In this document: positions 3,490 to 64,000 of the stretch, one piece after another
How positions within the stretch are numbered: position 1 is the first letter of the stretch
Layout of the letters: every line of letters begins with the position of its first letter
NCBI RefSeq assembly: GCF_044704955.1
Contig: NC_091996.1
Coordinates: 96,534,001-96,598,000 of the forward strand
Direction: 5' to 3'
Source: Pristiophorus japonicus
Taxonomy: Eukaryota
DNA: 64,000 nucleotides
Notes under the pieces: model-generated
What the model saw: only the letters and a program-made list of their open reading frames with translations
What the model was told of the DNA's origin: nothing
Database searches by the model: none
Translations under genes and position numbers: made by a program

Positions 3490-4010
3490 AGCAACAGGAA
3501 AGATGTGATTGCACTGGAGAGGGTGCAGAGGAGATTTACCAGGATGTTGCCGGGATTGGAGAATTTTAGCTGTGAGGAAATATTGGATAGGCTGGGGTTG
3601 TTTTCTTTGGAACAGAGGAGGCTGAGGGGAGACCTGATTGAGGTGTATAAAATTATGAGGGGCCTGGATAGAGTGGATAGGACGGACCTGTTTCCCTTAG
3701 CAGAGGGGTCAAGAACTAGGGGGCATAGATTTAAAGTAATTGGGGGGAGGTTTAGAGGGGATTTGTGGGAAAATTTCTTCACCCAGGGGGTGGTGGGGGT
3801 CTGGAACTCACTGCCTGAAAGGGTGATAGAGGCAGAAACCCTCACCACATTTAAAAAGTACTTGGATGTGCACCTGAAATGCCGTAACCTACAGGGCTAC
3901 GAACCCAGAGCTGGAAAGTGGGATTAGGCTGGGTAGCTCTTTGTCGGCCGGCACGGACACAATGAGCTGAAATGGCCTCCTTCCGTGCTGTAAATTTCTC
4001 TGATTCTAGG
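3490..4010 (+). mobile_element. CR1 3' fragment
   Basis: ORF 3445-3927 contains ALERVQRRFTRMLPG, RRLRGDLIEVYKIM and WNSLP. Confidence 0.9.
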
Positions 4011-4514
4011 CAAGGTCTATCCTAGGTCCTGACTTCCTGTGTCAATGCCACATGAGATCACCTGAACAGGAGGAGGCTATTCAGCCCCTCAAACCTGTTC
4101 CGCCAGTCAATTGGATCATATCTGATCTCTATCCATCCACGTCGGTTCCGTAACCCTTAATATCCTTCCCCAACAAAATTCGATCAATCTCTGTTTCTAA
4201 ATGTTTAACTGACCCCTCCCCTCCCCAGCCTCAAGAGTTTTTTTTTGGGGGGGGGCGAGGGGGAGAGAGTTGCAGATTCCCACGGCCCTTTGTGTGAAGA
4301 AGTGCTTCCTGACATCACCCTGAACGGCCTGGCTCTAATTTAAAGGTTCTGCCCCTTGTTCTGGACTCCCCCCACCAGAAGGAATAATTTCTCTCTACCC
4401 TTCAATCCTTTAAACATCTCAATAAGATCTCCCCTTAATTTTTTATACTCTTGGTATTGCAAGTTTCGTCTGTACAATATGCAACAATGAGATGGACTAG
4501 TAAAATTCATGAAC

Positions 4515-7215: not shown

Positions 7216-7399
7216 ATTCCCCCAGCTCTGTGACGATAAATTAAATGTGACAAGGCCTGCCATTCATGTTTGCCCCAGAGGTGGCGCTATAAACCTATCT
7301 CGGCCTGTTACTACAACAACAACTTGCATTTATACAGCACCTTTAATACAGTTAAATATCCCAAGCCACTTCACAGGAGCGTTATCAAACAACATTTGA

Positions 7400-7910
7400 C
7401 ATCTCCAACAGTGCGGCCCTCCCTCAGTACTGCCCCTCCGACAGTGCGACACTCCCTCAGTACTGCCCCTCCGACAGTGCAACACTCCCTCAGTACTGCC
7501 CCTCCGACAGTGCGGCGCTCCCTCAGTACTGCCCCTCCGACAGTGCGGCACTCCCTCAGTATTGCCCCTCCGACAGTGCGGCGCTCCCTCAGTACCGCCC
7601 CTCCGACAGTGCGACACTCCCTCAGTACTGCTCTGTCAGGTGGACGTAAAAGATCCCATGGCACTATTTCGAAGAAGAGTAGGGGAGTTCTCCCCGGTGT
7701 CCTGGGGCCAATATTTATCCCTCAATCAACATAACAAAAATCGATGATCTGGTCATTATCATAGTGCTGTGTGTGGGAGCTTGCTGTGCGCAAATAGGTG
7801 TTTCCCATATTACAACAGTGACTACACTCCGAAAAGTACTTCATTGGCTGTGAAACGCTTCGGGACGTCCTGAGCTGGTGAAAGGCGCTATATAACTGCA
7901 AGTACTTTCT
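7400..7910. mobile_element. 33-bp array (minus sense) fused to a plus-strand SINE 3' half, preceded by an L2 tail (7310-7400)
   Basis: About 7 units at 7403-7630, then a Deu-type body and the tail GAAAGGCGCTATATAA. Confidence 0.8.
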
Positions 7911-8155
7911 GTTTTACGGTTAAATAGCTGGCCAACCTTTTTTCTCTCTTCGCCATTGATCGCAGCCCTGGGACCCAAGCTCCCGGACTTGCCTTGGGGA
8001 CATGGGGCAGAAGATTCTCGGTGCTCAAGGGGACAGAATCCAGGTGGCTGGATTGGGATAAACCGTGGCCCCACCCCCTGTGGTGTCCTGGGCCAGCCCT
8101 CCCTCCCTCCCTCGACCAAAACAACAAGCCAGTCACCTCGCGGGCACTCGTGGGA

Positions 8156-8696
8156 CCATCGTAGGGAACCATCGGCAGGCCGGGGCCATTGGAGGGAGCA
8201 GCGTGGGGCGGTATACCACTGCAGGGAGCAGCGCGTGTTGCTGCAGGAGGGCGATGACTATGAAGCCAGGTCGCTGACTGCAGTGCAGGCAGGCACAGCA
8301 AGAGGGGCGAAGGAGCGGCGAGAGATCGTAGAGGGACGTGACCGGGGCCCAGGAGAGTCGTGAATCTGGGGCCCAGAAGAGGCGAGGGCCCAGGGGCAGC
8401 ACGGACCAGCCCACACTGCGATATGTGAGCGCACTGGGTCCGTGCAGCAGAGCTGCTCTCCAATCATCCTGGTTAACCCTTGCCCCTGGACCAAGACCTC
8501 GCTCTGTCAAGCCCGTGTGATGGCTGGTGTGCAACGGTCACCCCACGTTAAAACAATCCACCCACAGGCATCTTCCACCCTTCAGGATGTAGTTCGGGAT
8601 CCGGAATATTAGGTCCTTCATTGGGACACCGCGAACTCATCCCTTTTTGGTGTGGAAGCAAGTCACCCTCGCTTCGAGGGATCGCCTCTGATGATG
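8156..8696 (+). mobile_element. Non-autonomous retroposon with an RTE-derived 3' tail
   Basis: Ends GTGGAAGCAAGTCACCCTCGCTTCGAGGGATCGCCTCTGATGATGA, like the RTE tails at 4515 and 16705. Flanked by ACTCGTGGGA / ACTTGTGGGA (8146-8155, 8697-8706). Confidence 0.75.
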
Positions 8697-8929
8697 ACTT
8701 GTGGGAGCTTGCTGTGCGCACAAGGGTTGCCAGGAGAACGCCCACCTGGGCAGCTTGCTGCACTGGAATTGGTCGCGGGGCGTTTTTGGGGGGGGGGAGG
8801 TTTTCTGCCCACCATGGCGCTAAATCGAATGCAAACTCGAAAACACTGCAGCCTATCAAAGGCCGAGTTGTTACGTAATTAATCCGGATCTGTGGTGGGG
8901 GACGGGGGGAAGGGCTGTTCGATACGCAC

Positions 8930-9088
8930 CGAGGCTGAACCAGGAGATGTGCAGGAGGATCGGGTTTCGTGTCCCTGGCCCAGGGCCAGCGCTGAATACT
9001 GACAGAGGCAACACTCCCCGCACCAACACCAACACAAGCGACTCGGGACAGTGCTTCACAGGCCAAGGAACGCCGAGAGTCATGGCAG
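8930..9088 (-). CDS. Candidate exon with ATG at 9083 (MTLGVPWPVKHCPESLVLVLV...)
   Basis: Acceptor ccctgccttatgttcag, Kozak-like GCCATG, donor G|gtgcgt, in unique sequence between repeats. Confidence 0.45.
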
Positions 9089-9146
9089 CTGAACATAAGG
9101 CAGGGCAGTAACCCGCAACAACAGCAAAGGAAGACAGACATCGTAG

Positions 9147-19710: not shown

Positions 19711-19949
19711 TCTAAGGAAAAGAAGTTGGACTGGTCGGCCTAAACGTCTTCGTTTTTTGAACCTGTAAGATATTCCTCAGTGTGCAGAGCGCGAGAGGCC
19801 ACGCCCACAACCTGGAAGTCTCTCTCCCAAAAGGCTTTTGAGGTTGGGGGTGGGTTCCGTTGGAGCTTTCAAGACGGAGATCGACAGATTTTGGTTGGGC
19901 GAGGTCTTTAAGGGTTACAGAACCTGGGCAGGTAGATGGAGTTGGCTCA

Positions 19950-20638
19950 CATAAGAAATAGGAGTCGGTCATTTAAGCCCTCGAGCCTGCTCCGCCATTT
20001 AATACGATCATGGCTGATCTGATCATGGACTCAGCTCCACTTCCCCGCCCGCTCCCCATAACCCTTTACTCCCTTATCGTTCAAAAATCTGTCTATCTCC
20101 ACCTTAAATATAGTCAATGACCCAGCCTCCACAGCTCTCTGGGGCAGAGAATTCCACAGATTTACAACCCTCTGAGAGAAGAAATTTCTCCTCATCTCTG
20201 TTTTAAATGGGCGGCCCCTTATTCTAAGACCATGCCCCCTAGTTCTAGTCTCCCCCATCAGTGGAAACATCCTCTCTGCATCCACCTTGTCAAGCCCCCT
20301 CATAATCTTATACCTTTCGATAAGATCACCTCTCATTCTTCTGAATTCCAATGAGTAGAGGCCCAACCTCCTCAACCTTTCCTCATAAGTCAACCCCCTC
20401 ATCCCCGGAATCAACCGAGTGAACCTTCTCTGAACTGCCTCCAAAGCAAGTATATCCTTTCGTAAATATGGAAACCAAAACTGCACGCAGTACTCCAGGT
20501 GTGGCCTCACCAATACCCTGTATAACTGGAGCAAGACTTCCCTGCTTTTATACTCCATCCCCTTTGCAATAAAGGCCAAGATACCATTGACCTTCCTGAT
20601 CACTTGCTGTACCTGCATACTAACCTTTTGTGTTTCAT
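19950..20638 (-). mobile_element. CR1 3' fragment
   Basis: ORF 20031-20699 contains [17 protein letters not shown]; TTCTTATG tail. Confidence 0.92.
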
Positions 20639-32074: not shown

Positions 32075-34680
32075 ACAACAACTTGTATTTATATAGCGTG
32101 TAGTCAAATGTCCCAATGCACTTCACATGGGTGTTATAAAGGCACACAAAAAATTTGACACCGAGCCGGCTGTGAACAAATTAGCGCAGGTGACCAAAAG
32201 CTTGGTCAAAGAGGTCGGTTTTAAGGAACGTCTTAAAAGGAGGAGAGAGAGGTCGAGAGGTTTAGGGACGTGTAATGTATGCTCCTGTGAGGATGCTCAC
32301 AGGTTGGTGGCACTGTTGAGCTGGGAGCGGCTTAGCCAGCAACGTGACGTTCACAAGACTCAATAAAACCCCAGCCAGTTGGGTTCAGGGGATCCACGAT
32401 GGGGCAGGTGGTTGTGAGCCTGGTGGATGAACCGGTAATGTGTCGTGTGATTGTTAAACCTTTTGCTAATAAACCAACTAGAAACAAAGAAACATAGAAC
32501 ATAGGTGCAGGAGTAGGCCATTCGGCCCTTCGAGCCTGCACCACCATTCAATAAGATCATGGCTGATCATTCCCTCAGTACCCCTTTCCTGCTTTCTCTC
32601 CATACCCCTTGATCCCTTTAGCCGTAAGGGCCACATCTAACTCCTTTTTGAATATATTTAGTGAATTGGCCTCAACTACTTTCTGTGGTAGAGAATTCCA
32701 CAGGTTCACCACTCTCTGGGTGAAGAAGTTTCTCCTCATCTCGGTCCTAAATGATTTACCCCTTATCCTTAGACTGTGTCCCCTGGTTCTGGACTTCCCC
32801 AACATTGGGAACATTCTTCCTGCATTTAACCTGTCCAGTCCCGTCAGAATTTTACATGTTTCTATGAGATCCCCTCTCATCCTTCTAACTTCCAGCGAAT
32901 ACAAGCCCAGTTGATCCAGTCTTTCTTCATATGTCAGTCCTGCCATCCCGGGAATCAGTCTGGTGAACCTTCGCTGCGCTCCCTGAATAGCAGGAATGTC
33001 CTTCCTCAGGTTAGGAGACCAAAACTGTACACAATACTCCAGGTGTGGCCTCACCAAGGCCCTGTACAACTGTAACAACACCGCCCTGCCCCTGTACTCA
33101 AATCCCCTCGCTATGAAGGCCAACATGCCATTTGCCGCCTTCACTGCCTGCTGTACCTGCATGCCAACCTTCAATGACTGATGTACCATGACACCCAGGT
33201 CTCGTTGCACCTCCCCTTTTCCTAATCTGTCACCATTCAGATAATAGTCTGTCTCTCTGTTTTTACCACCAAAGTGGATAACCTCACATTTATCCACATT
33301 ATACTTCATCTGCCATGCATTTGCCCACTCACCTAACCTGTCCAAGTCACCCTGCAGCCTCCTAGCATCCTCCTCACAGCTCACACTGCCACCCAGCTTA
33401 GTGTCATCTGCAAACTTGGAGATATTACATTCAATTCCTTCGTCCAAATCATTAATGTATATTGTAAAAAGCTGGAGTCCCAGCACTGAGCCCTGCAGCA
33501 CCCCACTAGTCACTGCCTGCCATTCTGAAAAGGACCCGTTTATCCCGACTCTCTGCTTCCTGTCTGACAACCAGTTCTCTATCCACGTCAGTACATTACC
33601 CCTAATACCATGTGCTTTAATTTTGCACACCAATCTCTCGTGTGGGACCTTGTCAAAAGCCTTTTGAAAGTCCAAATACACCACATCCACTGGTTCTCTC
33701 TTGTCCACTCTGCTCGTTACATCCTCAAAAAATTCTCGAAGACTTGTCAAGCATGATTTCCCTTTCATACATCCATGCTGACTTGGACCGATCCTGTCAC
33801 TACTTTCCAAATGCGCTGCTCTTTCATCTTTAATAATTGATTCCAACATTTTCCCCACTACTGATGTCAGGCTAACCGGTCTATAATTACCCGTTTTCTC
33901 TCTCCCTCCTTTTTTAAAAAAGTGGTGTTACATTAGCTACCCTCCAGTCCATAGGAACTGATCCAGAGTCAATAGAATGTTGGAAAATGATCACCAATGC
34001 ATCCACTATTTCTAGGGCCACGTCCTTAAGTACTCTGGGATGCAGACTATCAGGCCTTGGGGATTTATCGGTCTTTAATCCCATCAATTTCCCTAACACA
34101 ATTTCCTAACTAATAAGGATTTCCTTCAGTTCCTCCTTCTCGCTAGACCCTCGGTCCCCTAGTATATCCTGGAAGGTTATTTGTGTCTTCCTTAGTGAAG
34201 ACAGAACCAAAGTATTTGTTCAACTAGTCTGCCATTTCTTTGTTCCCAGTTATAAATTCACCTGAATCTGACTGCAAGGGAGCTACATTTGTCTTCACTA
34301 ATCTTTTTCTTTTCACATTTCTATAGAAGCTTTTGCAGTCAGTTTTTATGTTCCCAGCAAGCTTCCTCTCATACTCTATTTTCCCCTCCTAATTAAACCC
34401 TTTGTCCTCCTCTGCTGAATTCTAACTTTCTCCCAGTCCTCAGGTTTGCTGCTTTTTCTGGACAATTTATATGCCTCTTCCTTGGATTTAACACTATCCT
34501 TAATTTCCCTTGTTAGCCACGGTTGAGCCACCTTCCCCATTTTATTTTTACTCCAGACAGGGATGTACAGTTGTTGAAGTTCATCTAGTTTTTAATGGCA
34601 ATGTGTTGCGATGGATGGTTAAGCAAAGAACCCATGAAGTAAATAAATTATCGGAGTGACTTCGAGAGCTCCTCCCACCA
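32075..34680. mobile_element. Nested cluster: L2 tail containing a solo-LTR-like element (32271-34652), itself containing a CR1
   Basis: L2 sequence resumes after 34652. The insert starts TGTAAT and has AATAAA motifs. Confidence 0.55.
32482..34584 (-). mobile_element. CR1 LINE, 5'-truncated, RT frame open at 32575-33858
   Basis: YLDFQKAFDKV and KFADDTKL motifs; TTCTATG-type tail; CTAG present at both junctions. Confidence 0.95.
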
Positions 34681-39419: not shown

Positions 39420-41228
39420 ACCAATCGCCGCTTGCGGACGTGCGTTCCAAACCTCTACCACCCTGCGTGTGTCGGAGTGTTTCCTAATTTCACTCCTGAT
39501 GCTCCCCTCGTTCTAGACTCACCAACCAGCGGGAATATTACATCGGACCACACGGGATATACAGCCCAGAAACAGGCCGTTCGGCCCAACCAGTCCAGGC
39601 CGGGGTTTATGACCCACTCGAGCCTCCTCCCGTCTTTCCCCATCTAACTCTATCGGCATAACCCTCGATTCCCTTCTCCCCCATATACTTGTCCAGCCTC
39701 CCCTTAAATACATCGATACTATTCGCCTCAACCCCTCCCTGTGGCAGCGAGTTCCACATTCTCACCACTCTCTGGGTAAAGAAGTTTCTCCTGAATTCCC
39801 CATTGGGTTTCTGGGTGACTATCTGATATTGATGGCCTCTAGTTATACTCTTCCCCACAAGTGGGAACACTCTCTCTGTATCCACTCCATCAAAACCTTA
39901 ACCAATAAGGGAATTAAGGGTTATGGGGAGCGGGGGGGTAAGTGGAGCTGAGTCCACGGCCAGATCAGCCATGATCTTGTTGAATGGCGGAGCAGGCTCG
40001 AGGGGCTAGATGGCCTACTCCTGTTCCTAATTCTTATGTTCTTATGTTTCATCATTTTACAGACCTCTATTAGCTCATCCCTCAGCCTTTTCTTTTCAAG
40101 CCTGTCCGTCCTTTCCTGATGTGTATACCCTCGCATTTCTGGTATCATCCTTGTAAATCTTCTCTGCACCCTCTCCAGTGCCTCTCTATCCTTTTTATAA
40201 TATGGCGACCAGAACTGTACGCAGTGCTCCACGTGTGGTCCTATATGTCTTCCTCCTGTGGCTCTCTATCCTTTATCTCTCTACCTACCCTATCACTGCC
40301 CCTCAATATCTTGGAGACCTCCATCAGTGTTTAAGCAGAAAGTTCCCATTTAATCATGTCCCGGGGTCAGACTTAAAGCCACAACCTTCTGACAAGGCAC
40401 CAAAAAGTACTTCATTGGCTGCAAAGCGCTTTGAAACAACCGGTGATCGTGAAAGGCGCTATATAATTGCAAATCTTTCTTGCCAACTCAGGCAAGTTGC
40501 AGCCGGAATAAACACAGTTCCAATCGCCTTGCCCCTTACTTCCTCTACAACGCCTTCTGTCCCCGATTCTATGCCAACGTTGTTGGATCGGGAGGTTACA
40601 TAACAGAAGAACATAAGAAATAGGAGCAGGAGTCGGCCACAAGGCCCCTTAAGCCTGCTCCGCCATTTAATACGATCATGGCTGATCCGATCATGGCCTC
40701 AGGTCCACTTCCCCGCCCGCTCCCCATAACCCCTTATCGTTTAAGAAACTGTCTATCTCTGTCTTAAATTTATTCAATGTCCCAGCTTCCACAGCTCTCT
40801 GGGGCAGCGAATTCCACAGATTTACAACCCTCAGAGAGAAGAAATTCCTCCTCATCTCAGTTTTAAATGGGCGGCCCCTTATTCTAAGACCATGCCCTCT
40901 AGTTCTAGTCTCCCCCATCAGTGGAAACATCCTCTCTGCATCCACCTTGTCAAGCCCCCTCATAATCTGATACGTTTCGATAAGATCACCTCCCATTCTT
41001 CTGAATTCCAATGAGTAGAGGCCCAACCTACTCAACCTTTCCTCATAAGTCAACCCCTCAACCCCGGAATCAACCTAGTGAACCTTCTCTGAACTGCCTC
41101 CAAAGCAAGTATATCCTTTCGTAAATATGGAAACCAAAACTGCACGCAGTACTCCAGGTGTGGCCTCACCAATACCCTGTATAACTGGAGCAAGACTTCC
41201 CTGCTTTTATACTCCATCCTCTTTGCAT
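39420..41228. mobile_element. Cluster of CR1 3' fragments, mostly minus; the youngest spans 40605-41228
   Basis: ORFs 39607-39885, 39921-40232 and 40691-41053 carry CR1 C-terminal motifs. Confidence 0.85.
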
Positions 41229-42734: not shown

Positions 42735-45700
42735 CTCGCTCTCCATATGTATCTCCCCCTCTCCCTCCCTCCCCATGTGTATGTATCTCCCCCTCTCCCC
42801 ATGTGTATGTATCTCCCTCTCTCCCTCCCTCCCCATGTGTATGTATCTCTCTCTCTCCCCATGTGTATGTATCTCCCGCTCTCTCTCCCCATGTGTATGT
42901 ATCTCCCGCTCTCTCTCCCCATGTGTATGTATCTCCCTCTCTCTCTCCCCATGTGTATGTATCTCCCGCTCTCTCTCCCCATGTGTATGTATCTCCCGCT
43001 CTCTCTCCCCATGTGCATGTATCTCCCCCTCTCTCCCCATGTGTATGTATCTCCCTCTCTCTCCCCATGTGCATGTATCTCCCTCTCTCTCCCCATGTGC
43101 ATGTATCTCCCTCTCTCTCCCCATGTGTATGTATCTCCCTCTCTCTCCCCATGTGCATGTATCTCCCTCTCCCTCCACATGTGCATGTATCTCCCTCTCC
43201 CTCCACATATGCATGTATCTCCCTCTCCCTCCACATATGCATGTATCTCCCTCTCCCTCTCTCTCTCTCTCTACGTGCAAATAGATGTTAACAAATATGA
43301 TGTGATTGGGATTACAGAGACGTGGCTCCAGGATGATCAGGGCTGGGAACTCAACATCCAAGGGTATTCAACATTTAGGAAGGATAGAATAAAAGGAAAA
43401 GGAGGTGGGGTAGCATTCTGGTTAAAGGGGAGATTAATGCAATAGTTAGGAAGGACATTAGCTTGGATGATGTTGAATCTATATGGGTAGAGCTGCAGAA
43501 CACCAAAGGGCAGAAAACGCTTGTGGGAGTTGTGTACAGACCTCCAAACAGTAGTAGTGATGTTGGGGACAGCATCAAACATGAAATTAGGGGTGCATGC
43601 AATAAAGGTGCAGCAGTTATAATGGGTGACTTTAATATGCACATAGATTGGGCTAACCAAACTGGAAGCAATACGATGGAGGAGGATTTCCTGGAGTGCA
43701 TAAGGGATGGTTTTTTAGACCAATATGTCGAGGAACCAACTATGGGAGAGGCCATCTTAGACTAGGTGTTGTGTAATGAGAGGGGATTAATTAGCAATCT
43801 CGTTGTGTGAGGCTCCTTGGGGAAGAGTGACCATAATATGGTGGAATTTTACATTAGGATGGAGAATGAAACAGTTAATTCAGAGACCATGGTCCAGAAC
43901 TTAAAGAAGGGTAACTTTGAAGGTATGAGGCGTGAATTGGCTAGGATAGATTGGCGAATGATACTGAAGGGGTTGACTGTGGATGGGCAATGGCAAACAT
44001 TTAGAGACCGCATGGATGAACTACAACAATTGTACATTCCTGTCTGGCGTAAAAATAAAAAAAGCGAAGGTGGCTCAACCGTGGCTATCAAGGGAAATCA
44101 GGGATAGTATTAAAGCCAAGGAAGTGGCATACAAATTGGCCAGAAATAGCAGCGAACCTGGGGACTGGGAGAAATATAGAACTCAGCAGAGGAGGACAAA
44201 GGGTTTGATTAGGGCAGAGAAAATAGAGTACGAGAAGAAGCTTGCAGGGAACATTAAGACGGATTGCAAAAGTTTCTATAGATATGGAAAGAGAAAAAGG
44301 TTAGTAAAGACAAACGTAGGTCCCCTGCAGTCAGAATCAGGGGAAGTCATAACGGGGAACAAAGAAATGGCAGACCAATTGAACAAGTACTTTGGTTCGG
44401 TATTCACTAAGGAGGACACAAACAACCTTCCAGATATAAAAGGGGTCAGAGGGTCTAGTAAGGAGGAGGAACTGAGGGAAATCCTTATTAGTCGGGAAAT
44501 TGTGTTGGGGAAATTGATGGGATTGAAGGCCGATAAATCCCCAGGGCCTGATGGACTGCATCCCAGAGTACTTAAGGAGGTGGCCTTGGAAATAGCGGAT
44601 GCATTGACAGTCATTTTCAAACATTCCATAGACTCTGGATCAGTTCCTATGGAGTGGAGGGTAGCCAATGTAACCCCACTTTTTAAAAAAGGAGGGAGAG
44701 AGAAAACAGGGAATTATAGACCGGTCAGCCTGACATCGGTGAGTAAAATGATGGAATCAATTATTAAGGATGTCATAGCAGCGCATTTGGGAAGAGGTGA
44801 CATGATAAATCCATGCTGACTTGGACCTGTGAAAGGGAAATCATGCTTGACAAATCTTCTGGAATTTTTTTGAGGATGTTTCCAGTAGAGTGGACAAGGG
44901 AGAACCAATTGATGTGGTATATTTGGACTTTCAGAAGACTTTTGACAAGGTCCCACACAAGAGATTAATGTGCAAAGTTAAAGCACATGGGATTGGGGGT
45001 AGTGTGCTGACGTGGATTGAGAACTGGTTGTCAGACAGGAAGCAAAGAGTAGGAGCAAATGGGTACTTTTCAGAATGGCAGGCTGTGACTAGTGGGGTAC
45101 CGCAAGGTTCTGTGCTGGGGCCCCAGCTGTTTACACTGTACATTAATGATTTAGACGAGGGGATGAAATGTAGTATCTCCAAATTTGCGGATGATACTAA
45201 GTTGGATGGCAGTGTGAGCTGCGAGGAGGATGCTATGAGGCTGCAGAGTGACTTGGATAGGTTAGGTGAGTGGGCAAATGCATAGCAGATGAAGTATAAT
45301 GTGGATAAATGTGAGGTTATCCACTTTGGTGGTAAAAACAGAGAGACAGACTATTATCTGAATGGTGACAGATTAGGAAAAGGGGAGGTGCAACGAGACC
45401 TGGGTGTCATGGTTCATCAGTCATTGAAGGTTGGCATGCAGGTACAGCAGGCGGTTAAGAAAGCAAATGGCGTGTTGGCCTTCATAGCGAGGGGATTTGA
45501 GTACAGGGGCAGGGAGGTGTTGCTACAGTTGTACAGGGCCTTGGTGAGGCCACACCTGGAGTATTGTGTACAGTTTTGGTCTCCTAACTTGAGGAAGGAC
45601 ATTCTTGCTATTGAGGGAGTGCAGCGAAGGTTCACCAGACTGATTCCCGGGATGGCGAGACTGACATATCAAGAAAGACTGGATCAACTGGGCTTGTATT

Positions 45701-48700
45701 CACTGGAGTTCAGAAGGAAGAGAGGGGACCTCATAGAAACGTTTAAAATTCTGACGGGTTTAGACAGGTTAGATGCACGAAGAACGTTCCCAATGTTGGG
45801 GAAGTCCAGAACCAGGGGTCACAGTCTAAGGATAAGGGGGAAGCCATTTAGGACCGAGATGAGGAGAAACTTCTTCACCCAGAGAGTGGTGAACCTGTGG
45901 AATTCTCTACCACAGAAAGTTGTTGAGGCCAATTCACTAAATATATTCAAAAAAGAGTTAGATGAAGTCCTTACTACAAGGGGGATCAAGGGGTATGGTG
46001 AGAAAGCAGGAATGGGGTACTGAAGTTGCATGTTCAGCCATGAACTCATTAAATGGCGGTGCAGGCTTGAAGGGCCGAATGGCCTACTCCTGCCCCTATT
46101 TTTCTATGTTTCTATGTGTATGTATCTCCCTCTCCTCTCTCCCCATGTGTATGTATCTCCCTCTCTCGCTCTCTCTCTATGTGTATGTATCTCCCCCTCT
46201 CTCTCCCCATATGTATGTATCTCCCTCTCTCGCTCTCTCTATGTGTATGTATCTCCCCCTCTCTCTCCCCATATGTATGTATCTCCCTCTCCTCTCTCTC
46301 TCTCCCCATGTGTATGTATCTCCCTCTCTCTCCCCGTGTATGTATCTCCCTCTCTCTCCCCATGTGTATGTATCTCTCTCTCTCTCCCCATGTGTATGTA
46401 TCTCCCTCTCTCTCCCCATGTGTATGTATCTCCCTCTCTCTCCCCATGTGTATGTATCTCCCTCTCTCTCCCCATGTGTATGTATCTCCCTCTCTCTCCC
46501 CATGTGTATGTATCTCCCCCTCTCTCCCCATGTGTATGTATCTCTCTCTCTCTCCCCATGTGTATGTATCTCCCTCTCTCTCCCCATGTGTATGTATCTC
46601 CCCCTCTCTCTCCCCATGTGTATGTATCTCCCTCTCTCTCCCCATGTGTATGTATCTCCCTCTCTCTCCCCATGTGTATGTATCTCCCTCTCTCTCCCCA
46701 TGTGTATGTATCTCCCTCTCTCTCCCCATGTGTATGTATCTCCCTCTCTCTCCCCATGTGTATGTATCTCCCTCTCTCTCCCCATGTGTATGTATCTCCC
46801 TCTCTCTCCCCATGTGTATGTATCTCCCTCTCTCTCCCCATGTGTATGTATCTCCCCCTCTCTCCCCATGTGTATGTATCTCTCTCTCTCTCCCCATGTG
46901 TATGTATCTCCCTCTCTCTCCCCATGTGTATGTATCTCCCTCTCTCTCCCCATGTGTATGTATCTCCCTCTCTCTCCCCATGTGTATGTATCTCCCTCTC
47001 TCTCCCCATGTGTATGTATCTCCCTCTCTCTCCCCATGTGTATGTATCTCCCTCTCTCTCCCCATGTGTACGTATCTCCCTCTCTCTCTCTCTCTCTCTC
47101 TCCCCCCATGTGTATGTATCTCCCTCTCTCTCCCCATGTGTATGTATCTCCCTCTCTCTCTCTCCCTCCCTCTCTCTCCCTCTCCCCATGTGTATGTATC
47201 TCCCTCTCCTCTCTCTCTCTCCCCATGTGTATGTATCTCCCTCTCCTCTCTCTCTCTCTCCCCCATGTGTATGTATCTCCCTCTCCTCTCTCTCTCTCTC
47301 TCCCCATGTGTATGTATCTCCCTCTCTCTCTCCCCATGTGTATGTATCTCTCTCTCTCTCTCCCCATGTATATGTATCTCTCTCTCTCTCCCCATGTGTA
47401 TGCATCTCCCTCACTCTCCCCATGTGTATGTATCTCCCTCTCTCTCTCCCCATGTGTATGTATCTCTCTCTCTCTCCCCATGTGTATGTATCTCTCTCTC
47501 TCTCCCCATGTGTATGTATCTCCCTCTCTCTCCCCATGTGTATGTATCTCCCTCTCTCTCCCCATGTGTATGTATCTCCCTCTCTCTCCCCATGTGTATG
47601 TATCTCTCTCTCTCTCCCCATGTGTATGTATCTCCCTCTCTCTCCCCATGTGTATGTATCTCCCTCTCTCTCCCCATGTGTATGTATCTCCCTCTCTCTC
47701 CCCATGTGTATGTATCTCCCTCTCTCTCCCCATGTGTATGTATCTCCCTCTCTCTCCCCATGTGTATGTATCTCCCTCTCTCTCCCCATGTGTATGTATC
47801 TCCCTCTCTCTCCCCATGTGTATGTATCTCCCTCTCTCTCCCCATGTGTATGTATCTCCCTCTCTCTCCCCATGTGTATGTATCTCCCTCTCTCTCCCCA
47901 TGTGTATGTATCTCCCTCTCTCTCTCTCTCTCTCTCTCCCCCCATGTGTATGTATCTCCCTCTCTCTCCCCATGTGTATGTATCTCCCTCTCTCTCTCCC
48001 TCCCTCTCCCTCGCCCTCTCCCCATGTGTATGTATCTCCCTCTCCTCTCTCTCTCCCCATGTGTATGTATCTCCCTCTCCTCTCTCTCTCTCTCCCCATG
48101 TGTATGTATCTCTCTCTCTCCCCATGTGTATGTATCTCTCTCTCTCTCTCCCCATGTATATGTATCTCTCTCTCTCTCCCCATGTGTATGCATCTCCCTC
48201 ACTCTCCCCATGTATATGTATCTCCCTCTCTCTCTCCCCATGTGTATGTATCTCTCTCTCTCCCAATGTGTATGTATCTCTCTCTCTCTCCCCATGTGTA
48301 TGTATCTCTCTCTCTCTCCCCATGTGTATGTATCTCCCTCTCTCTCTCCCCATGTGTATGTATCTCCCTCTCTCTCCCCCCATGTGTATGTATCTCTCTC
48401 TCTCCCCATGTGTATGTATCTCCCTCTCTCTCTCCCCATGTGTATGTATCTCCCTCTCTCTCTCCCCATGTGTATGTATCTCCCTCTCTCTCCCCATGTG
48501 TATGTATCTCCCTCTCTCTCCCCATGTGTATGTATCTCCCTCTCTCCCCATGTGTATGTATCTCCCCCTCTCTCTCCCCATGTGTATGTATCTCTCTCTC
48601 TCTCCCCATGTGTATGTATCTCCCCTCTCTCTCCCCATGTGTATGTATCTCCCTCTCTCTCCCCCCATGTGTATGTATCTCTCTCTCTCTCTCCCCCCAT

Positions 48701-54500: not shown

Positions 54501-57450
54501 CTATGTGGGGGGGGTGACACTATGTGGGGGGGGGTGAGACACTATGGGGGGGGGTGACACTATGTGGGGGGGTGAGACACTATGTGGGGGGGGTGAGACA
54601 CTATGGGGGGGGGTGACACTATGTGGGGGGGGTGAGACACTATGTGGGGGTGAGACACTATGGGGGGGGGTGACACTATGTGGGGGGGGGTGAGACACTA
54701 TGTGGGGGTGAGACACTATGTGGGGGGTGTGACACTATGTGGGGGGGGTGAGACTCTATGTGGGGGTGAGACACTATGTGGGGGGTGACTCTATGTGGGG
54801 GGGGTGACACTATGGGGGGGGTGACACTATGTGGGGGGGGGTGAGACACTATGTGGGGGTGAGACACTATGTGGGGGGTGACTCTATGTGGGGGGGGTGA
54901 CACTATGGGGGGGGTGACACTATGTGGGGGGGGGGGTGAGACACTATGGGGGGGGGGTGACACTATGTGGGGGGGTGAGACACTATGTGGGGGGGGTGAG
55001 ACACTATGGGGGGGTGAGACACTATGGGGGGGGGTGACACTATGTGGGGGGGTGAGACACTATGTGGGGGTGAGACACTATGGGGGGGGTGACACTATGT
55101 GGGGGGGGTGAGACACTATGTGGGGGTGAGACACTATGTGGGGGGGTGACTCTATGTGGGGGGGTGACACTATGGGGGGGGGTGACACTATGTGGGGGGG
55201 TGAGACACTATGTGGTGGGGGGGTGACTCTATGTGGGGGTGAGACACTATGTGGGGGTGAGACACTATGGGGGGGGGTGACACTATGTGGGGGGGGGGGT
55301 GAGACACTATGTGGGGGTGAGACACTATGTGGGGGGGTGACTCTATGTGGGGGGGGTGACACTATGGGGGGGGGTGACACTATGGGGGGGGGGTGAGACA
55401 CTATGTGGGGGGGGTGAGACACTATGTGGGGGGGTGACACTATGTGGGGGGGGTGAGACACTATGTGGGGGTGAGACACTATGTGGGGGGGTGACACTAT
55501 GTGGGGGGGTGACTCTATGTGGGGGGGGTGACACTATGGGGGGGGTGACACTATGGGGGGTGAGACACTATGTGGGGGGGTGACACACTATGTGGGGGGG
55601 TGACTCTATGTGGGGGTGACTCTATGTGGGGGTGACTCTATGTGGGGGGGGGTGACTCTATGTGGGGGGGGGTGACTCTATGTGGGGGGGGTGACTCTAT
55701 GTGGGGGGGGGTGACTATGTGGGGGTGAGACACTATGTGGGGGGGGGTGACTCTATGTGGGGGGGTGACTCTATGTGGGGGGGGGTGACTCTATGTGGGG
55801 GGGGTGACTCTATGTGGGGGGGGTGACTCTATGTGGGGGGGGTGACTCTATGTGGGGGGGGTGACTCTATGTGGGGGGGGGGTGACTCTATGTGGGGGTG
55901 AGACACTATGTGGGGGGGGTGACACTATGTGGGGGGGGTGACACTATGTGGGGGTGAGACACTATGTGGGGGGGGTGACACTATGTGGGGGGGGGTGACA
56001 CTATGTGGGGGTGAGACTCTATGTGGGGGGGGTGACACTATGTGGGGGGGGGTGACACTAATGGGGGGTGAGACACTATGTGGGGGGGTGACTCTATGTG
56101 GGGGGGTGACACTATGTGGGGGGGTGACACTATGTGGGGGGGGTGACTCTATGTGGGGGGGTGACTCTATGTGGGGGGGGTGAGACACTATGTGGGGGGG
56201 TGACTCTATGTGGGGGGGTGACACTATGTGGGGGGGTGACACTATGTGGGGGGGTGACACTATGTGGGGGGGGTGACTCTATGTGGGGGGGGGTGAGACA
56301 CTATGTGGGGGGGTGACTCTATGTGGGGGGGGGTGACACTATGTGGGGGGGTGACTCTATGTGGGGGGGGTGACTCTATGTGGGGGGGGTGAGACACTAT
56401 GTGGGGGGGGTGACTCTATGTGGGGGGGTGACACTATGTGGGGGGGGTGACTCTATGTGGGGGGGGTGAGACACTATGTGGGGGGGTGACTCTATGTGGG
56501 GGGGTGACTCTATGTGGGGGGGTGACTCTATGTGGGGGGGGGTGACACTATGTGGGGGGGTGACTCTATGTGGGGGGGTGACTCTATGTGGGGGGGGGTG
56601 ACACTATGGGGAGGGTGACACTATGGGGAGGGTGACACTATGTGGGGGGGGGTGACTCTATGTGTGGGGGGTGACACTATGTGGGGGGGTGACTCTATGT
56701 GGGGGGGTGACTCTATGTGGGGGGGGGTGACACTATGTGGGGGGGTGACACTATGGGGAGGGTGACACTATGGGGAGGGTGACTCTATGTGTGGGGGGTG
56801 ACTCTATGTGGGGGGGGGTGACACTATGTGGGGGGGTGACTCTATGTGGGGGGGGGTGACACTATGGGGAGGGTGACACTATGGGGAGGGTGACACTATG
56901 TGGGGGGGGTGACTCTATGTGGGGGGGGGTGAGACACTATGTGGGGGGGTGACACTATGGGGAGGGTGACACTATGGGGAGGGTGACACTATGTGGGGGG
57001 GTGACTCTATGTGGGGGGGGGTGACACTATGGGGAGGGTGACACTATGTGGGGGGGGTGACTCTATGTGGGGGGGTGACACTATGGGGAGGGTGACACTA
57101 TGTGGGGGGGTGACTCTATGTGGGAGGGTGACACTATGTGGGGGGGTGACACTATGGGGAGGGTGACACTATGTGGGGGGGGTGACTCTATGTGGGGGGG
57201 TGACTCTATGTGGGAGGGTGACACTATGTGGGGGGGTGACTCTATGTGGGGGGGGGTGACACTATGTGGGGGGGTGACACTATGTGGGGGGGGGTGACAC
57301 TATGTGGGGGGGTGACTCTATGTGGGGGGGGGTGACACTATGTGGGGGGGTGACACTATGTGGGGGGGGGTGACACTATGTGGGGGGGTGACTCTATGTG
57401 GGGGGGTGAGACACTATGTGGGGGGGGTGACTCTATGTGGGGGGGGGGGG
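51554..57450. repeat. 18-20-bp G-rich minisatellite (GACTCTACTTGGGGGGGC and variants)
   Basis: 18-bp period giving 6-aa periodic ORFs; G5-G11 runs. Confidence 0.97.
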
Positions 57451-57455
57451 TTTAC

Positions 57456-57900
57456 CTGCCCGCGCCTCCTCTCTCTCTCTCTCTGTCTGTCTCTCTCTCC
57501 AGGCCCGCCGATCCCTCACACGCCGCCCTCCATTTTGCAGCGCCTGCCAGATCTCGTCTTCTCGCCTCGCCCGCTCCCGCGAGACCTTCCAGCGCTCACC
57601 CCTCCTGCAGCCAATCAGGCAGCGTCCTCTCAGAAATCTACCCAGCAACAGGCGACGTGACTCCGCTCAAAGCCTCTGCCCAGCCAATCAGCGAGTGGCG
57701 CAGCTCCGCCCAGCCAATCGGGGAGCGGCGTCTCTAATCGGCCCAGCAACAGGGAATGGAGGCTCAAATCTGCCCAGCAACAGGGAGTGCCAGCTCAAAT
57801 CTGCCCAGCAACAGGGAGTGCCAGCTCAAATCTGCCCAGCAACAGGGAGTGCCAGCTCAAATCTGCCCAGCAACAGGGAGTGGCAATGAAATACTAACCA
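57456..57900 (-). promoter_or_regulatory. Promoter and probable non-coding exon 1 of the SCHIP1-like gene
   Basis: Donor CAG|gtaaac at 57456, YY1-like CAAAATGG at 57530-57537, three CAGCCAATC boxes (about 57608, 57681, 57711), CpG-rich, and a 31-bp x5 repeat from 57741. Confidence 0.6.
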
Positions 57901-58057
57901 GCAACAAGTGTCATGTTGCCAACTCCGGCTTGACGCATTCCTGGAGATTTTATCTCACGACCCTCCTATCCCCCACCGCCCAACCTCCCAATTGGCCTTT
58001 CCCGCCACTTCCCCAATATTGTTATGTCGAATAAAGAAAAGGATTCAGGAAACTGAA

Positions 58058-61000
58058 TATCGATTGGTCAAATCAAATCGCACGGGGTAGCCTGGAGGAA
58101 GAATTCATAGAATGTATACGGGATTGTTTCTTAGAACAGTATGTTACAGAACCTACAAGTGAGCAAGCTATCTTAGATCTGGTCCTGTGTAATGAGACAG
58201 GGATAATAAACGATCTCCTAGTAAAAGATCCTCTCGGAATGAGTGATCGCAGTATGGTTGAATTTGTAATACAGATTGAGGGTGAGGAAGTTGTGTTACA
58301 AACGAGCGCACTATGCTTAAACAAAGGAGACTACAGTGGGATGAGGGCAGAGTTGGCTAAAGTAGACTGGAAACACAGACTAAACAGTGGCACAATTGAG
58401 GAACAGTGGAGGACTTTTAAGGAGCTCTTTCATAGTGCGCAACAAAAATATATTCCAGTGAAAAAGAAGGACGGCAAGAGAAGGGATAACCAGCCGTGGA
58501 TAACCAAGGAAATAAAGGAAAGTATCAAATCAAAGACCAATGCGTATAAGGTGGCCAAGGTTAGTGGGAAACTAGAGGATTGGGAAAATTTTAAGCAACA
58601 GCAAAGAATGACTAAAAAAGCAATAAAGAAAGGAAAGATAGATTACGAAGGTAAACTTGCGCAAAACATAAAAACAAATAGTAAAAGCTTTTACCGGTAT
58701 ATAAAACGGAAAAGAGTGACTAAAGTAAATGTTGGTCCCTTAGAAAATGAAAAGGGGGATTTAATAATGGGAAATGTGGAAATGGCTGAGACCTTAAACA
58801 ATTATTTTGCTTCCGTCTTCACAGTGGAAGACACAAAAACCATGCCAAAATTTGCAGGCCACAGGAATGTGGGAAGGGAGGACCTTGAGACAATCACTAT
58901 CACTAGGGGGGTAGTGCTGGACAGGCTAATGGGACTCAAGGTAGACAAGTCCCCTGGTCCTGATGAAATGCATCCCAGGGTATTAAAAGTGATGGCGGAA
59001 GTTATAGCAGATGCATTCGTTATAATCTACCAAAATTCTCTGGACTCTGGGGAGGTACCAGCGGATTGGAAAGCAGCTAATGTAACGCCTCTGTTTAAAA
59101 AAGGGGGCAGACAAAAGGCAGGTAACTATAGGCCAGTTAGTTTAACATCTGTAGTGGGGAAAATGCTTGAAGCTATCATTAAGGAAGAAATAGCGGGACA
59201 TCTAGATAGGAATAGTGCAATCAAGCAGACGCAACATGGATTCATGAAAGGGAAATCATGTTTAACTAACTTACTGGAATTCTTTGAGGATATAACGAGC
59301 ATGGTGGATAGAGGTGTACCGATGGATGTGGTGTATTTAGATTTCCAAAAGGCATTCGATAAGGTGCCACACAAAAGGTTACTGCAGAAGATACGCGGAG
59401 TCAGAGGAAATGTATTAGCATGGATAGAGAATTGGCTGGCTAACAGAAAGCAGAGAGTCGGGATAAATGGGTCCTTTTCGGGTTGGAAATCGGTGGTTAG
59501 TGGTGTGCCACAGGGATCAATGCTGGGACCACAACTGTTTACAATATACATAGATGACCTGGAAGAGGGGACAGAGTGTAGTGCAACAAAATTTGCAGAT
59601 GACACAAAGATTAGTGGGAAAGCGGGTTGTGTAGAGGACACAGAGAGGCTGCAAAGAGATTTGGATAGGTTAAGCGAATGGGCGAAGGTTTGGCAGATGG
59701 AATACAATGTCGGAAAGTGTGAGGTCATCCACCTTGGGAAAAAACCAGTAAAATGGAATATTATTTGAATGGGGAGAGTTTACAACATGCTGAGGTGCAG
59801 AGGGACCTGGGGGTCCTTGTGCATGAAACTCTTTTAGAGTTTATCTGTAAAACAAAACATTAAACCGTGCCACCCGCCTGGATGACACACCAGACATTTA
59901 CAAGGCCCTTTTTTTTTTTCCTTTTTTTGGTTTTCTTTTTGTGTTTTTCTTTTTTTTTGGGGCACTAAAATCACATTTTTTCCCCAGTGCCCCCTATAAA
60001 AGGGGAGGGGGACACTAAAAGCACCGGCAATTAAAACAAATTAAACTTTAAAACGTAAAATCAAATTAAAATTTGGTTGCCGGGCGTGATGATGCACTCC
60101 AGTCCCTCCGGTGCCCACCTCTCGCGGAAGGCCGCGAGCGTACCGGTGGACACCGCGTGCTCCATCTCCAAGGACACCCTGGACCGGATGTAAGAGCGGA
60201 AGAGAGGCAGGCAGTCTGGCTGAACGACCCCCTCGACCGCCCGCTGCCTGGACCGGCTGATGGCACCCTTGGCCGTGCCCAGGAGCAGTCCTACGAGGAG
60301 GCCTTCAGACCTACCCGCTCCCCTCCGCACAGGGTGCCCAAAGATCAGGAGAGTGGGACTGAAGTGCAGCCAGAATTTCAGGAGCAGCCCCTTCAAATAA
60401 TGGAACAGGGGCTGCAACCTCGTGCACTCAATAAAAACATGGAACACGGACTCCTCCAGACCGCAGAAATTGCAGGCGGCCTGGGAGTCCGTGAACCGGC
60501 TTAAAAATTTATTGCACGGCACTGCTCCGTGCACCACCCTCCAGGCCAAGTCCCCGATGAATAGTGGGAGGACTCCCGCATAGAGTGCCCTCCATCGGGG
60601 ACCCCCGCCTCCTCCGGACGGCAAGATGGTACGCCATGGCGTGTCCGGACGGCCGGCGAGGATGGCAAAGTTGAGAGTGTGCAGGAGCAGCCCGTACAGG
60701 AAACCCCTCCGCGCGGAACTGAAAGGCACGGAGGCGGCTCAAGTTGTGAGGCGCCGGCCCCCGAGGGAGGTTCCGGGATTTGGCGCCAATGAGGAATTCC
60801 GTCCGGACGGGGGTCAGTTCGGACGGGATCTCCCCACGTGCTTGAGCCTCCTCGATGCACCTAACGGAGTCAGGGCCCAGAGCTGTTTTTAGCGACTCGA
60901 TGGCATCGGCCGCGCGGCGGACGTTGGCTGAATTTAGGCGCCGCGCCAGCGTGCCTGGCGCCATCCAGCCCACTCCTCCGCCATCGAACAGGTCCCTGAC

Positions 61001-62639
61001 CCTGGTCACCTCACCAGCCACAGCCCTCTCTTCCGACCGCCACATAAAACCTCGGTCGTGGAGGTACGGATTCCCGAGCAGCGGCTCCTGCAGGACGGCC
61101 GCCACTCCAGCCGGCGGAGAGCTGCGCTTGGTGGAGACTTTGTTCCAGACCCTGATGAGGTCCCTGTAAAAGACAGGCAGCTCCCGGAGGGTGGTCCTGA
61201 CACCCCCCAAGTTCACAAACAGGAGCTGCGTGTCGTAGTTGAGGTCGCGCTGCTGGCGGAAGAAATACGTCGCCAGAGCGCACCACCTAGGAGGGGGCTC
61301 GACGTAAAGGTATCTCTGCAGGATCTGAAGACGGAAAGTCGCGAGCTGGGCGCTGACGCACACCAACGACTGACCGCCCTCCCCAAGCGGGAGCCTCAAG
61401 ACCGCGGCAGAGACCCATTGCTTCTTCTGTATCTTGGCGACAAACGCAGGGGGAGGGGTCAAAGTGACCAGCCGGTACCACAACATTGCGGCCACCAGCT
61501 GGTTTATGACTAGCGCTCGACCCCTGTAGGACAGCACTCGGAGCAGTCCTGTCCAGCGCCCTAGGCGAGCGGCGACCTTGGCCTCCAGCTCCTGCCAGTT
61601 CGCCGGCCAGGCTTCCTCGTCGGGGCTAAGGTAGACTCCCAGATAGAGGAGATGGGTCGTGCTCCAGGCAAAAGGCCTGAGCTCCTCCGGCAGGGAGTCC
61701 ACCCGCCACTGACCCACCAGGAGTCCGGAACATTTCTCCCAGTTGATTCTGGCGGAGGACGCGGCCGAGTAAATCTCTTGGCACTCACGCATCCTCCGCA
61801 GGTCAGCGGGATCCTCTACCGCGAGGAGCACGTCATCGGCGTAAGCCGAGAGGACGACCTCCACGCCCGGCCCTTGCAGAGCCAGTCCCGTCAACCTCGT
61901 CCGCAGGAGGCGCAGGAAAGGCTCCACGTCCTTGTGCATGAATCCCAAATAAAAAAAGTTTGCAGGTGCAGCAGGTAATCAGGAAGGCGAATGGAATGTT
62001 GGCCTTCATTGCGAGAGGGATGGAGTACAAAAGCAGGGAGGTCCTTCTGCAACTGTACAGGGTATTGGTGAGGCCGTACCTGGAGTACTGCGTGCAGTTT
62101 TGGTCACCTTACTTAAGGAAGGGTATACTAGCTTTGGAGGGGGTACAGAGAGGATTCACTAGGCTGATTCCGGAGATGAGGGGGTTACCTTATGATGATA
62201 GATTGAGTAGACCGGGTCTTTACTCCTTGGAGTTCAGAAGGATGAGGGGTGATCTTATAGAAACATTTAAAATCATGAAAGGGATAGACAAGATAGGGGC
62301 AGAGAGGTTGTTTCCATTGGTAGGGGAGACGAGAACCAGGGGGCACAGCCTCAAAATACAGAGGAACCAATTTAAAACCGAGTTGAGAAGGAATTTCTTC
62401 TCCCAGAGGGTTGTGAATCTGTGGAATTCTCTGCCCAAGGAAGCAGTTGAGGCTAGCTCATTGAATGTATTCAAGTCACAGATAGATAGATTTTTAAGCA
62501 ATAAGGGAATTAAGGGTTACGGGGAGCGGGCGGGTAAGTGGAGCTGAGTCCACGGCCAGATCAGCCATGATCTTATTAAATGGCGGAGCAGGCTCGAGGG
62601 GCTAGATGGCCTACTCTTGCTCCTAATTCTTATGTTCTT
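58058..62639 (+). mobile_element. CR1 LINE (different subfamily), 5'-truncated, interrupted by Tx1
   Basis: ORFs 58239-59768 and 61960-62547; TTCTTATG tail. Confidence 0.95.
59828..61927 (-). mobile_element. Tx1/L1-clade non-LTR retrotransposon, 5'-truncated, with 15-bp TSD
   Basis: SAYADD, YLGVYL and zinc knuckle CNFC-x7-H-x4-C. TSD GTCCTTGTGCATGAA at 59813-59827 and 61928-61942. Confidence 0.93.
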
Positions 62640-63179
62640 AAACTGAGGGAAAAAAAAGGCACCCAATATTTTTAATGTTCTGGCTTGGTCCTGGACAATC
62701 CTAGACACGTTAAATCTACCCTGCAACAAAAATAACTTGCACTTACAGAGCGACTGTAACGCAGGAAAACGTTGCAGGGCGCTTCACAGGAGCGTAATCA
62801 AACAAAATTTGCCAACCCAGCCACATAAGGAGAAATTAGGGCAGATGACCAAAAGCTTGGTCAAAGAGGTCGGTTTTAAGGAGCGTCTTAAAGCAGGAGA
62901 GGCGGAGAGGGAGTTCCAGAGCTTAGATCCTCAGAATTCTTTGTAAGTATTGAGGCTGTGGGCATGGAATAAAGTGCTAATGGTTTTCAAGAGGGAAACA
63001 TGTCTGTTTAAAAGCATTTAAAATTAATTGTGGAAAGTAAAATCAGTGTGAAAAAAGAGATAGGTGATTTAAAAAAAAATGCATTCTTTCTGACATATAT
63101 TGAGGCTGTGGGTGTGGAATAAAGTGCAAGTGGTTCTCAAGTTGCAAACATGTCTGTCCCACTGCTTGAGCAACCCACC

Positions 63180-63500
63180 TGGGCGCCATTGTGGCCGGGG
63201 CGCGTGCGCAGTGGGCCGGGCCCGGGCCGTGGTGGCCGGCGCGCGTGCGCAGTGGGGCCGGAGTGTCCTCGGCGCGTGCGCAGAGGGCCGGGCCCGGCCG
63301 CCGTTGCCCCGGGAGACGGCGGTTGGAGAGCCGGGGGGGCGGGCAGTTAGCGCACCGCGGGACAATTCAAAATACGTCAGAGAGCGGCGGGGTTGGGGCC
63401 CTGTTGCCATGGTGACCGAGCGGGTGGGCGACTGAAGGCGCAAGGCCCCAGAGCCAGGACCTGCCCTGCGGCCCGGGGCAACTGCTGCCCCTCAGAGGTG
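63180..63500 (+). promoter_or_regulatory. CpG-island promoter/first exon with three NRF1 motifs and RFX X-boxes
   Basis: GCGCGTGCGCA at 63200, 63241 and 63272; GTTGCCCCGGGAGAC at 63303; GTTGCCATGGTGAC at 63403; possible donor GAG|gtgtgg near 63497. Confidence 0.65.
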
Positions 63501-64000
63501 TGGGCCATGGGGGGAGAGAGGGGGCGGGGCGGGGCTGGGCCATGGGGGGAGAGAGGGGGCGGGGCTGGGCCATGGGGGAGAGAGGGGGCGGGGCCATGGG
63601 GGGGAGAGAGGGGGCGGGGCTGGGCCATGGGGGGGAGAGAGGGGGCGGGGCTGGGCCATGGGGGAGAGAGGGGGCGGGGCTACGGCTGGGCCAGGTGGGA
63701 GAGAGGGGGCGGGGCTAGGGCTGGGCCATGGGGGGAGAGAGGGGGCGGGGCTGGGCCATGGGGGGAGAGAGGGGGCTGGGCTGTGCCATGGGGGGGAGAG
63801 AGGGGGCGGGGCTACGGCTGGGCCAGGTGGGAGAGAGGGGGCGGGGCTAGGGCTGGGCCATGGGGGGAGAGAGGGGGCGGGGCTGGGCCATGGGGGGAGA
63901 GAGGGGGCTGGGCCATGGGGGGGAGAGAGGGAGGGGGCGGGGCCATGGGGGGAGAGGGGGGCGGGGCTGTGCCATGGGGGGAGAGAGGGGTTGGGGCTGG
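63500..64000. repeat. G-rich minisatellite of about 30 bp containing Sp1 GC boxes
   Basis: Units of GGGGGAGAGAGGGGGCGGGGCTGGGCCAT. Confidence 0.92.

Follow-up and report, generated by a model that had tools for sequence, protein, structure and literature searches.

The window analysed here, a 64,000-nucleotide stretch of the genome of Pristiophorus japonicus (contig NC_091996.1, positions 96,534,001 to 96,598,000), contains a dead, 5'-truncated copy of a retrotransposon lacking long terminal repeats (a non-LTR retrotransposon), of the Tx1L lineage, lying antisense in the second open reading frame (ORF2) of a member of a young family of CR1, a long interspersed nuclear element (LINE). The copy belongs to a family that inserts at this same position of CR1 throughout the genome. 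As a preliminary description of the window had reported, the Tx1-type element, with its reverse transcriptase (RT) and CCHC zinc finger, is flanked by exact repeats. It retains ORF2 from codon 664 to its end and the 3' untranslated region (UTR), and its terminus reads ACTCT-AAA-AGAGT and then TT, again as described, without poly(A) (Table 1). The two 15-bp copies of the target-site duplication (TSD) are identical and cannot be extended on either side, and at minimum the base at 59827 comes from both element and target. Insertion split the host ORF2 (plus strand) within the motif RDLGVLVHE/SQKV; a frameshift ~60-80 bp ahead of the insertion site predates the event.

Table 1. Features of the occupied CR1 locus, in window coordinates
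Position	Strand	Feature	Basis
58057..59827	+	Host CR1, left part, 5'-truncated; ORF2 (end of endonuclease, RT)	RVT_1 match; other copies align from there
59813..59827	+	TSD copy, element 3' side; 14-bp core at 59814-59827	Exact repeat, junction comparison
59826..59842	-	Terminal stem-loop, AAACTC / A-rich loop / GAGTTT	Junction and variant comparison
59828..60060	-	Tx1 3' UTR, A-rich tract, no terminal poly(A)	Sequence reading
60061..60738	-	Tx1 ORF2 codons 1077-1299, zf-RVT (CCHC)	Protein 100% identical to full-length copy in locus L034
60731..61927	-	Tx1 ORF2 codons 664-1072, RT C-terminal half onward	Alignment; 10-codon gap, frameshift at ~60731
59828..61927	-	Complete 5'-truncated Tx1 copy, 2,100 bp	Positions 5050-7172 of 7.17-kb full-length copy, 94% identity
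61928..61942	+	TSD copy, element 5' side; includes a single base (61928) of microhomology with the element	Exact repeat
61943..62640	+	Right part of host CR1, with the discriminating bases on the TCCC side, the ORF2 C-terminus, the 3' UTR and the TTCTTATG octamer tail	

A genome search with the last 103 bases of the element (59828-59930) returned 1,412 candidates, of which 40 were scored and 30 retrieved. Full-length copies are ~7.17 kb long, with a constant 5' start and a 5' UTR of ~940 bases, and some have both ORF1 and ORF2 open. In L034, ORF1 (~698 aa) contains a CCHC zinc knuckle and ORF2 (1,299 aa) specifies an apurinic/apyrimidinic-type (APE) endonuclease (PF03372), RT (PF00078) and zf-RVT (PF13966). 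Pairwise divergence among copies is 3.6%. ORF2 is 49% identical to that of Xenopus Tx1L over 1,297 residues (59% within the RT); its identity is 51% with a turtle family, 60% with a sturgeon and 69% with a stingray fragment. In a quick maximum-likelihood RT tree of 32 rows (30 of the 120 listed matches, the element, and the host CR1 as a distant outgroup that leaves the root open), the element joined the stingray row with a support of 99, beside sturgeon, Tx1L and turtle, and 22 mostly teleost rows separated at 100. Of the known site-specific Tx1 families, against which the preliminary description proposed a phylogeny, the element groups with Tx1L; proteins named Keno, Kibi, Koshi, Dewa or Mutsu were absent from the listed protein matches. 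Because it has two ORFs, the endonuclease, RT and zinc finger, a grouping with Tx1L, and TSDs with 5' truncation, the element is classed from its sequence as a Tx1-clade non-LTR retrotransposon of the Tx1L lineage. In two full-length loci, no match to a ribozyme or other RNA family reached the gathering score.

The host is an element that we take to be CR1, from the taxa of its relatives, its octamer tail and established knowledge. The best named relatives of its ORF2 are RT proteins of rays and sharks (56-68%) and of birds, turtle, lizard and frog (41-56%), none of them labelled CR1, and TTCTTATG repeats without poly(A) end the window copy and 10 of 10 empty copies. CR1 hosts of the element differ pairwise by 5.0-5.2%. 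The proposal of a conserved site in shark CR1 stands as far as a site in CR1 ORF2 is concerned, but the real target is narrower, a single young family rather than CR1 broadly. The site may serve the element as a safe harbour, as the preliminary description suggested. The octamer of avian CR1 is TTCTGTGA (PMC2612034).

Site specificity within CR1 ORF2

Genome-wide we identified 1,099 exact element ends, and the seven bases of the target lay directly next to 923 of them (84%), against a chance expectation of less than 0.01% for a random 7-mer; a less strict end pattern gave 4,118 junctions. The prediction that most copies would abut TTCATGCACAAGGAC in CR1 was therefore borne out. We also considered the first 100 ends on contig C1, 80 of which matched the target exactly. 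Among the 23 of these 80 that were retrieved, 21 continued straight into CR1 and two into the target and another copy. All 20 non-matching ends were retrieved; seven lay at the CR1 site but carried a mutation, adjoined another copy in tandem or sat in an older CR1, whereas 13 were off target. The C1 total at the CR1 site is 87 of 100, with 57 of those 87 scored by the 7-base match alone. Consecutive C1 ends were at the site in 26 of 30 cases, as were 26 of 29 best-scoring other copies. Both the genome-wide share (84%) and that on C1 exceed the threshold of >20% applied in PMC4494074 to a target-specific Tx1 family, and use of one single base is not explained by the abundance of CR1-group elements, which account for 22-34% of the genome in sharks and rays (PMC13343379). 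We are close to certain that this family is site-specific for one position of CR1 ORF2. Using the 22 CR1 bases in common, we counted 6,088 filled and 24,152 empty sites, an occupancy of ~20% obtained by exact matching, which undercounts both classes; reversed-pattern controls gave 0.

Off-target insertions mostly carried TSDs of 11-15 bp that began TTC or TCC after A or C, often TTCA, and three (L009, L059, L129) had no clear TSD. Two off-target pairs, L008 with L039 and L125 with L131, shared, or nearly shared, a position within two further repeats, which may be secondary targets.

Sister CR1 families, 70-82% identical to the young family, have ACAC in place of TCCC on the non-duplicated side of the site, a version with 46,887 exact matches in the genome. 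Their homologous site is also used, at a low rate. In one sister family 27 sites were filled among 25,351, and 30 of 30 sampled sites were empty; 20 of the 27 were retrieved, and some proved to be point mutants of the young family. A sister family with the identical 19 bases on the duplicated side had 9,748 exact empty sites and 287 candidate junctions, and of 30 junctions retrieved one held Tx1; we estimate its occupancy at ~0.2%, corrected for the half of junctions that escape the pattern. The young family is preferred over its sisters roughly 100-fold, a bias determined by the TCCC side or else by the age of the families.

Junctions, breakpoints and arrays

The 15-bp TSD of the preliminary description is exact at the window locus but is not the rule for the family. 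At 27 scored junctions the repeat was 14 bp in 10, the commonest length, 15 in five and 16 in four, the rest being tandem or mutated. Because at the window locus the fifteenth base doubles as the following base of the element itself, we read the TSD as 14 bp plus one base of microhomology. The element end also needs revision, being at least one base longer than claimed. Ends read GAGTTTC in 99 of 107 cases, including three off-target sites that start with TCC (L008, L122, L123), and because GAGTTTC persists where the target begins TCC, the element contributes at least GAGTT. As for the 3' hairpin, the stem AAACTC/GAGTTT is kept, but the T-A closing pair is not conserved (the first base of the loop was T in 29 of 61 ends, C or A in 27 and irregular in five) and the stem is weak without target bases (-1.8 to -2.8 kcal/mol for 26-mers). 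Three stem variants recur, representing a few inherited changes rather than many events; two are A-to-G and compatible with G-U pairing, and one disrupts the outer pair.

Two accounts suit these junctions. In one, the RNA terminates in GAGUUUC or continues past it by read-through, and pairs with a GAA-3' primer; in the other, the nick sits one base over. The 14-base stagger, constant at both kinds of site, would slightly favour pairing between RNA and primer. One element end reads GTGT and one sister site GAGT, a weak hint that the terminal bases may have been taken from a sister target.

We next turn to the 5' side, where the 26 outermost junctions in CR1 context, which extend from full length to position 6898, comprise at least 18 distinct breakpoints. 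Each has its own TSD, after which CR1 picks up at the next base. As the 5' breakpoints vary, the insertions are independent; in keeping with this, the elements differ less among themselves (3.6%) than do the CR1 copies that contain them (5.0-5.2%). A 5' truncation hot spot used on and off target lies near the ORF2 end (L034 reference 6874-6900), where RNA structure perhaps stalls the RT.

Copies in arrays are arranged head to tail with a TSD between neighbours. In L017, L130, L124 and L044 the TSD of the upstream copy contains the first bases of the older resident copy, indicating that new copies join at the TCCC-side junction and that distance determines where the second cut falls. Adjacent truncated pairs had a common 5' breakpoint in 14 of 17 cases (8 of 10 loci, with two loci supplying 8 of the 14), compared with 10 of 465 cross-locus pairs, under a breakpoint pattern that missed some junctions (e.g. 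L005, L067, L125, L129, L131). Divergence between most array neighbours is similar to that between unrelated copies, in some cases at variant positions in common, and on this ground we rejected simple, recent duplication in tandem as the only origin of the arrays, although duplication contributes in L128.

Several further observations concern individual arrays. The L128 array (minus strand, 3853-9101) holds at least six copies with one 5' breakpoint, at the homologous site of an older CR1 family. Full-length copies starting CCAATGG, in L017, L038, L126 and L130, always have an 8-bp junction rather than one of 14. In L124, L044 and L048 there are mini-insertions of the element's last 7-17 bases, with short duplications, that were later used as targets. 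Open frames of the LTR-retroelement type lie in the flanks of L048 (2040-3119) and L050 (946-4331; both in element-sense coordinates).

At the base of a five-copy array in L045, at the CR1 site, a tRNA-Leu(CAG) gene with a ~30-base trailer is fused to the Tx1 3' UTR (minus strand, 7946-8262; L091 1596-1678), probably through a template switch. We rejected a tRNA-Leu-headed short interspersed nuclear element (SINE) dependent on Tx1, as only one of 40 scored hits (out of 1,627 candidates), L045 itself, spanned the join; the remaining 39 held the tRNA gene and trailer only. Many near-identical tRNA-Leu(CAG) loci with a common trailer, spaced ~100 kb apart, were found in L092-L120 (contig C20 at 79-81 Mb and small contigs) and represent large tRNA gene clusters.

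Target recognition

It is likely, judging from the sequences compared here, that targeting is led by the element's own endonuclease, reading the young CR1 ORF2 sequence. The enzyme would nick at CATGAA/TCCC on the sense strand of CR1, and much of its discrimination would come from the TCCC side. A poly(A)-less RNA that ends in or reads through GAGUUUC would then pair through its last bases with the GAA-3' primer, yielding a uniform junction, and the second strand would be cut ~14 bases off, whatever the sequence there. The TCCC-side junction would retain the recognised context, so that new copies could stack on it, and new complementary DNA (cDNA) may often pair with the adjoining resident copy and be trimmed or switch template there, setting the 5' end at the same base. 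The catalytic residues of the endonuclease align with those of Tx1L (45% identity), and its hairpin loop is three residues shorter and lacks RDGH; the Tx1L endonuclease alone nicks its own target specifically, and its hairpin loop affects target choice (PMC1950540).

A shared site could in principle reflect descent, if one or a few ancient Tx1-in-CR1 composites had been amplified by CR1 retrotransposition or segmental duplication. The element and its host are similarly young (3.6% against about 5% pairwise) and some breakpoints recur, such as 6898 in four CR1 loci. However, breakpoint 6898 is also found off target (L121, L133), the homologous site in sister families is used too, arrays grow in place, and the varied outermost 5' breakpoints, each with its own TSD and with CR1 continuing at the next base, refute the spread of a composite, leaving this explanation with scarcely any credibility. 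A different possibility is that pairing between RNA and primer does most of the targeting: a read-through RNA would carry the CR1 target at its 3' end, and a loose endonuclease would nick many GAA sites, of which those that pair well would prime. The lack of poly(A), the uniform GAGTTTC junction, the TTC or TCC (often TTCA) at which off-target sites begin, and the pairing of this kind proposed for SART1Bm and R1Bm (PMC7265360) would all fit, and read-through is plausible because 14 of 16 full-length 5' junctions have another copy immediately upstream. Yet occupancy is ~100-fold lower in the sister family whose pairing side is identical over 19 bases, and the discriminating bases lie on the side with which the RNA tail cannot pair, and we consider pairing unlikely to be the main determinant. 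Less probable still is that the enzyme reads a short core only and that the young family was new, open or under synthesis while Tx1 was active. The preferred family is indeed the closest in age to the element, and families 70-82% identical to it are used at the homologous base at a low rate; against this, off-target sites mostly have A or C before TTC or TCC, like the young family and unlike the sister families with their T, and new copies pick the junction that retains the TCCC context (L017, L130, L124, L044).

Site-specific insertion led by the endonuclease, as set out above, also has observations to contend with. With 13 of the 100 C1 ends off target, specificity is strong but falls short of absolute. 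The 3' junctions fit an element that ends in GAGTT and a nick shifted by one base almost as well as they fit pairing. The sister families are older, and age or chromatin may add to the discrimination. Truncation hot spots near 6880-6900 occur at off-target sites as well. In L128, three of five neighbour pairs differ less than any unrelated copies do, and L045 and L130 each have one neighbour pair in the lowest 2% of divergence, and because of these close pairs we conclude that duplication or conversion contributes to some arrays. Finally, a rule that the upstream copy is never longer than the downstream one was broken in five loci (L034, L035, L042, L129, L131), so that a 5' end fixed by the resident copy is not a rule.

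A bolder reading, which we regard as conceivable but doubtful, is that of a hyperparasite locked on a LINE, which would track a single young CR1 family, by its endonuclease, through four bases of a conserved ORF2 motif, break a fifth of its copies, use a captured primer-pairing tail in place of poly(A), and have its 5' ends in arrays dictated by residents. The idea of a captured tail comes from the terminal GAGT/GTGT, which equals the bases of the sister family beside the site. If this were true, a LINE-versus-LINE chase would be legible across shark and ray genomes.

Comparison with known systems

Tx1L of Xenopus laevis (whose ORF2 is YTX2_XENLA, P0025) resembles the element in its APE endonuclease, RT and zf-RVT (ORF2 49% identical), in its lineage, which in the RT tree lies apart from the teleost cluster, and in its insertion at one site of another mobile element (PMC4494074, PMC1950540). 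It differs in the endonuclease hairpin loop, as noted above, in the bases after the nick (AGTT for Tx1L (PMC1950540), TCCC at the nick proposed here) and in its target, Tx1D being a piggyBac-type DNA transposon whereas the present family inserts into the coding region of CR1, a LINE, which rules out membership in the Tx1L family proper. The crocodilian families Tx1-Mar, Tx1-8_Crp, Tx1-4_AMi and Tx1-9_AMi likewise prefer fixed sites in transposons (Mariner-N4, LTR elements, Harbinger), are often antisense, and form tandem insertions around a TSD; unlike the young element with open frames described here, they are old (85-87% to consensus), and they differ further in that Tx1-Mar clusters with Keno and that their SINEs are poly(A)-tailed (PMC4494074). 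Kibi, Koshi and the crocodilian TTCC/TTTC-targeting Tx1 families, compared by target only, have in common with the element a TC/TTC core at the insertion point, present here on and off target, but their targets are microsatellites and the context here is longer and non-repetitive (PMC4494074). R1Bm and SART1Bm are also site-specific APE elements, with target-like 3' RNA bases proposed to pair with the nicked strand, but belong to the R1 clade and target rDNA or telomeres, and SART1 requires poly(A) (PMC7265360). By target, identity with Keno (U2), Kibi ((TC)n), Koshi ((TTC)n) or Tx1-Mar (Mariner-N4) is ruled out, as the flanks here are CR1. The same holds for Dewa, which targets tRNA arrays, and Mutsu, which targets 5S.

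Tx1 elements are known to insert into satellites and microsatellites, into U2, U5 and 5S, and into piggyBac, Mariner, Harbinger and LTR elements, and to form tandem insertions around a TSD (PMC4494074); we found no LINE target named there. Our literature search, which left the repeat databases Repbase and Dfam outside its scope and does not establish absence from print, found no Tx1 or other element with a CR1 or LINE target. Targeting of other transposons by Tx1 is already known; a LINE coding region as the target appears to be new, and would add another LINE's coding sequence to a Tx1 target range of RNA genes, microsatellites, DNA transposons and LTR elements. The thousands of young insertions constitute a natural data set, in which on-target sites, those of the near-miss family and off-target sites could jointly show which bases an APE endonuclease recognises, a long-standing problem in the study of site-specific retrotransposons and in their use for targeted insertion. 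The arrays provide evidence from living genomes about the later, poorly understood half of LINE integration, namely the distance-set second cut and the neighbour-fixed 5' end. Moreover, a parasite that breaks a fifth of the copies of one CR1 family could influence the turnover of CR1, and it will complicate the annotation of repeats.

A search of sequencing runs listed matches in eight organisms, with no RNA run among them. In contigs from 4 of 18 runs of other organisms both the CR1 side and the Tx1 coding side were covered, no listed contig spanned the junction, and the bins for the 3' UTR contained nothing, data that say nothing for or against the same target there. Turtle gene models carrying a second endonuclease profile contained no CR1 pieces at >=38% identity and thus give no hint of a turtle CR1 target. 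In run X14 (organism E) the end of Tx1 ORF2 was covered very deeply at ~85-90% identity, together with an ACAC-type CR1 site, which we read as an abundant related family.

Elsewhere in the window, older CR1 copies (66-81% identical) lie at 12-1254, 19949-20621, 32491-34525, 40607-41219 and 43677-46110; those scored at the site are unoccupied and unlike the target in sequence. Long G-rich minisatellites extend over 54676-57450 (18-bp unit) and 63474-64000 (units of about 18-36 bp), and a CCAAT-containing 31-bp tandem repeat and a GC-rich, promoter-like stretch flank the occupied CR1 (57600-57910 and 63170-63470).

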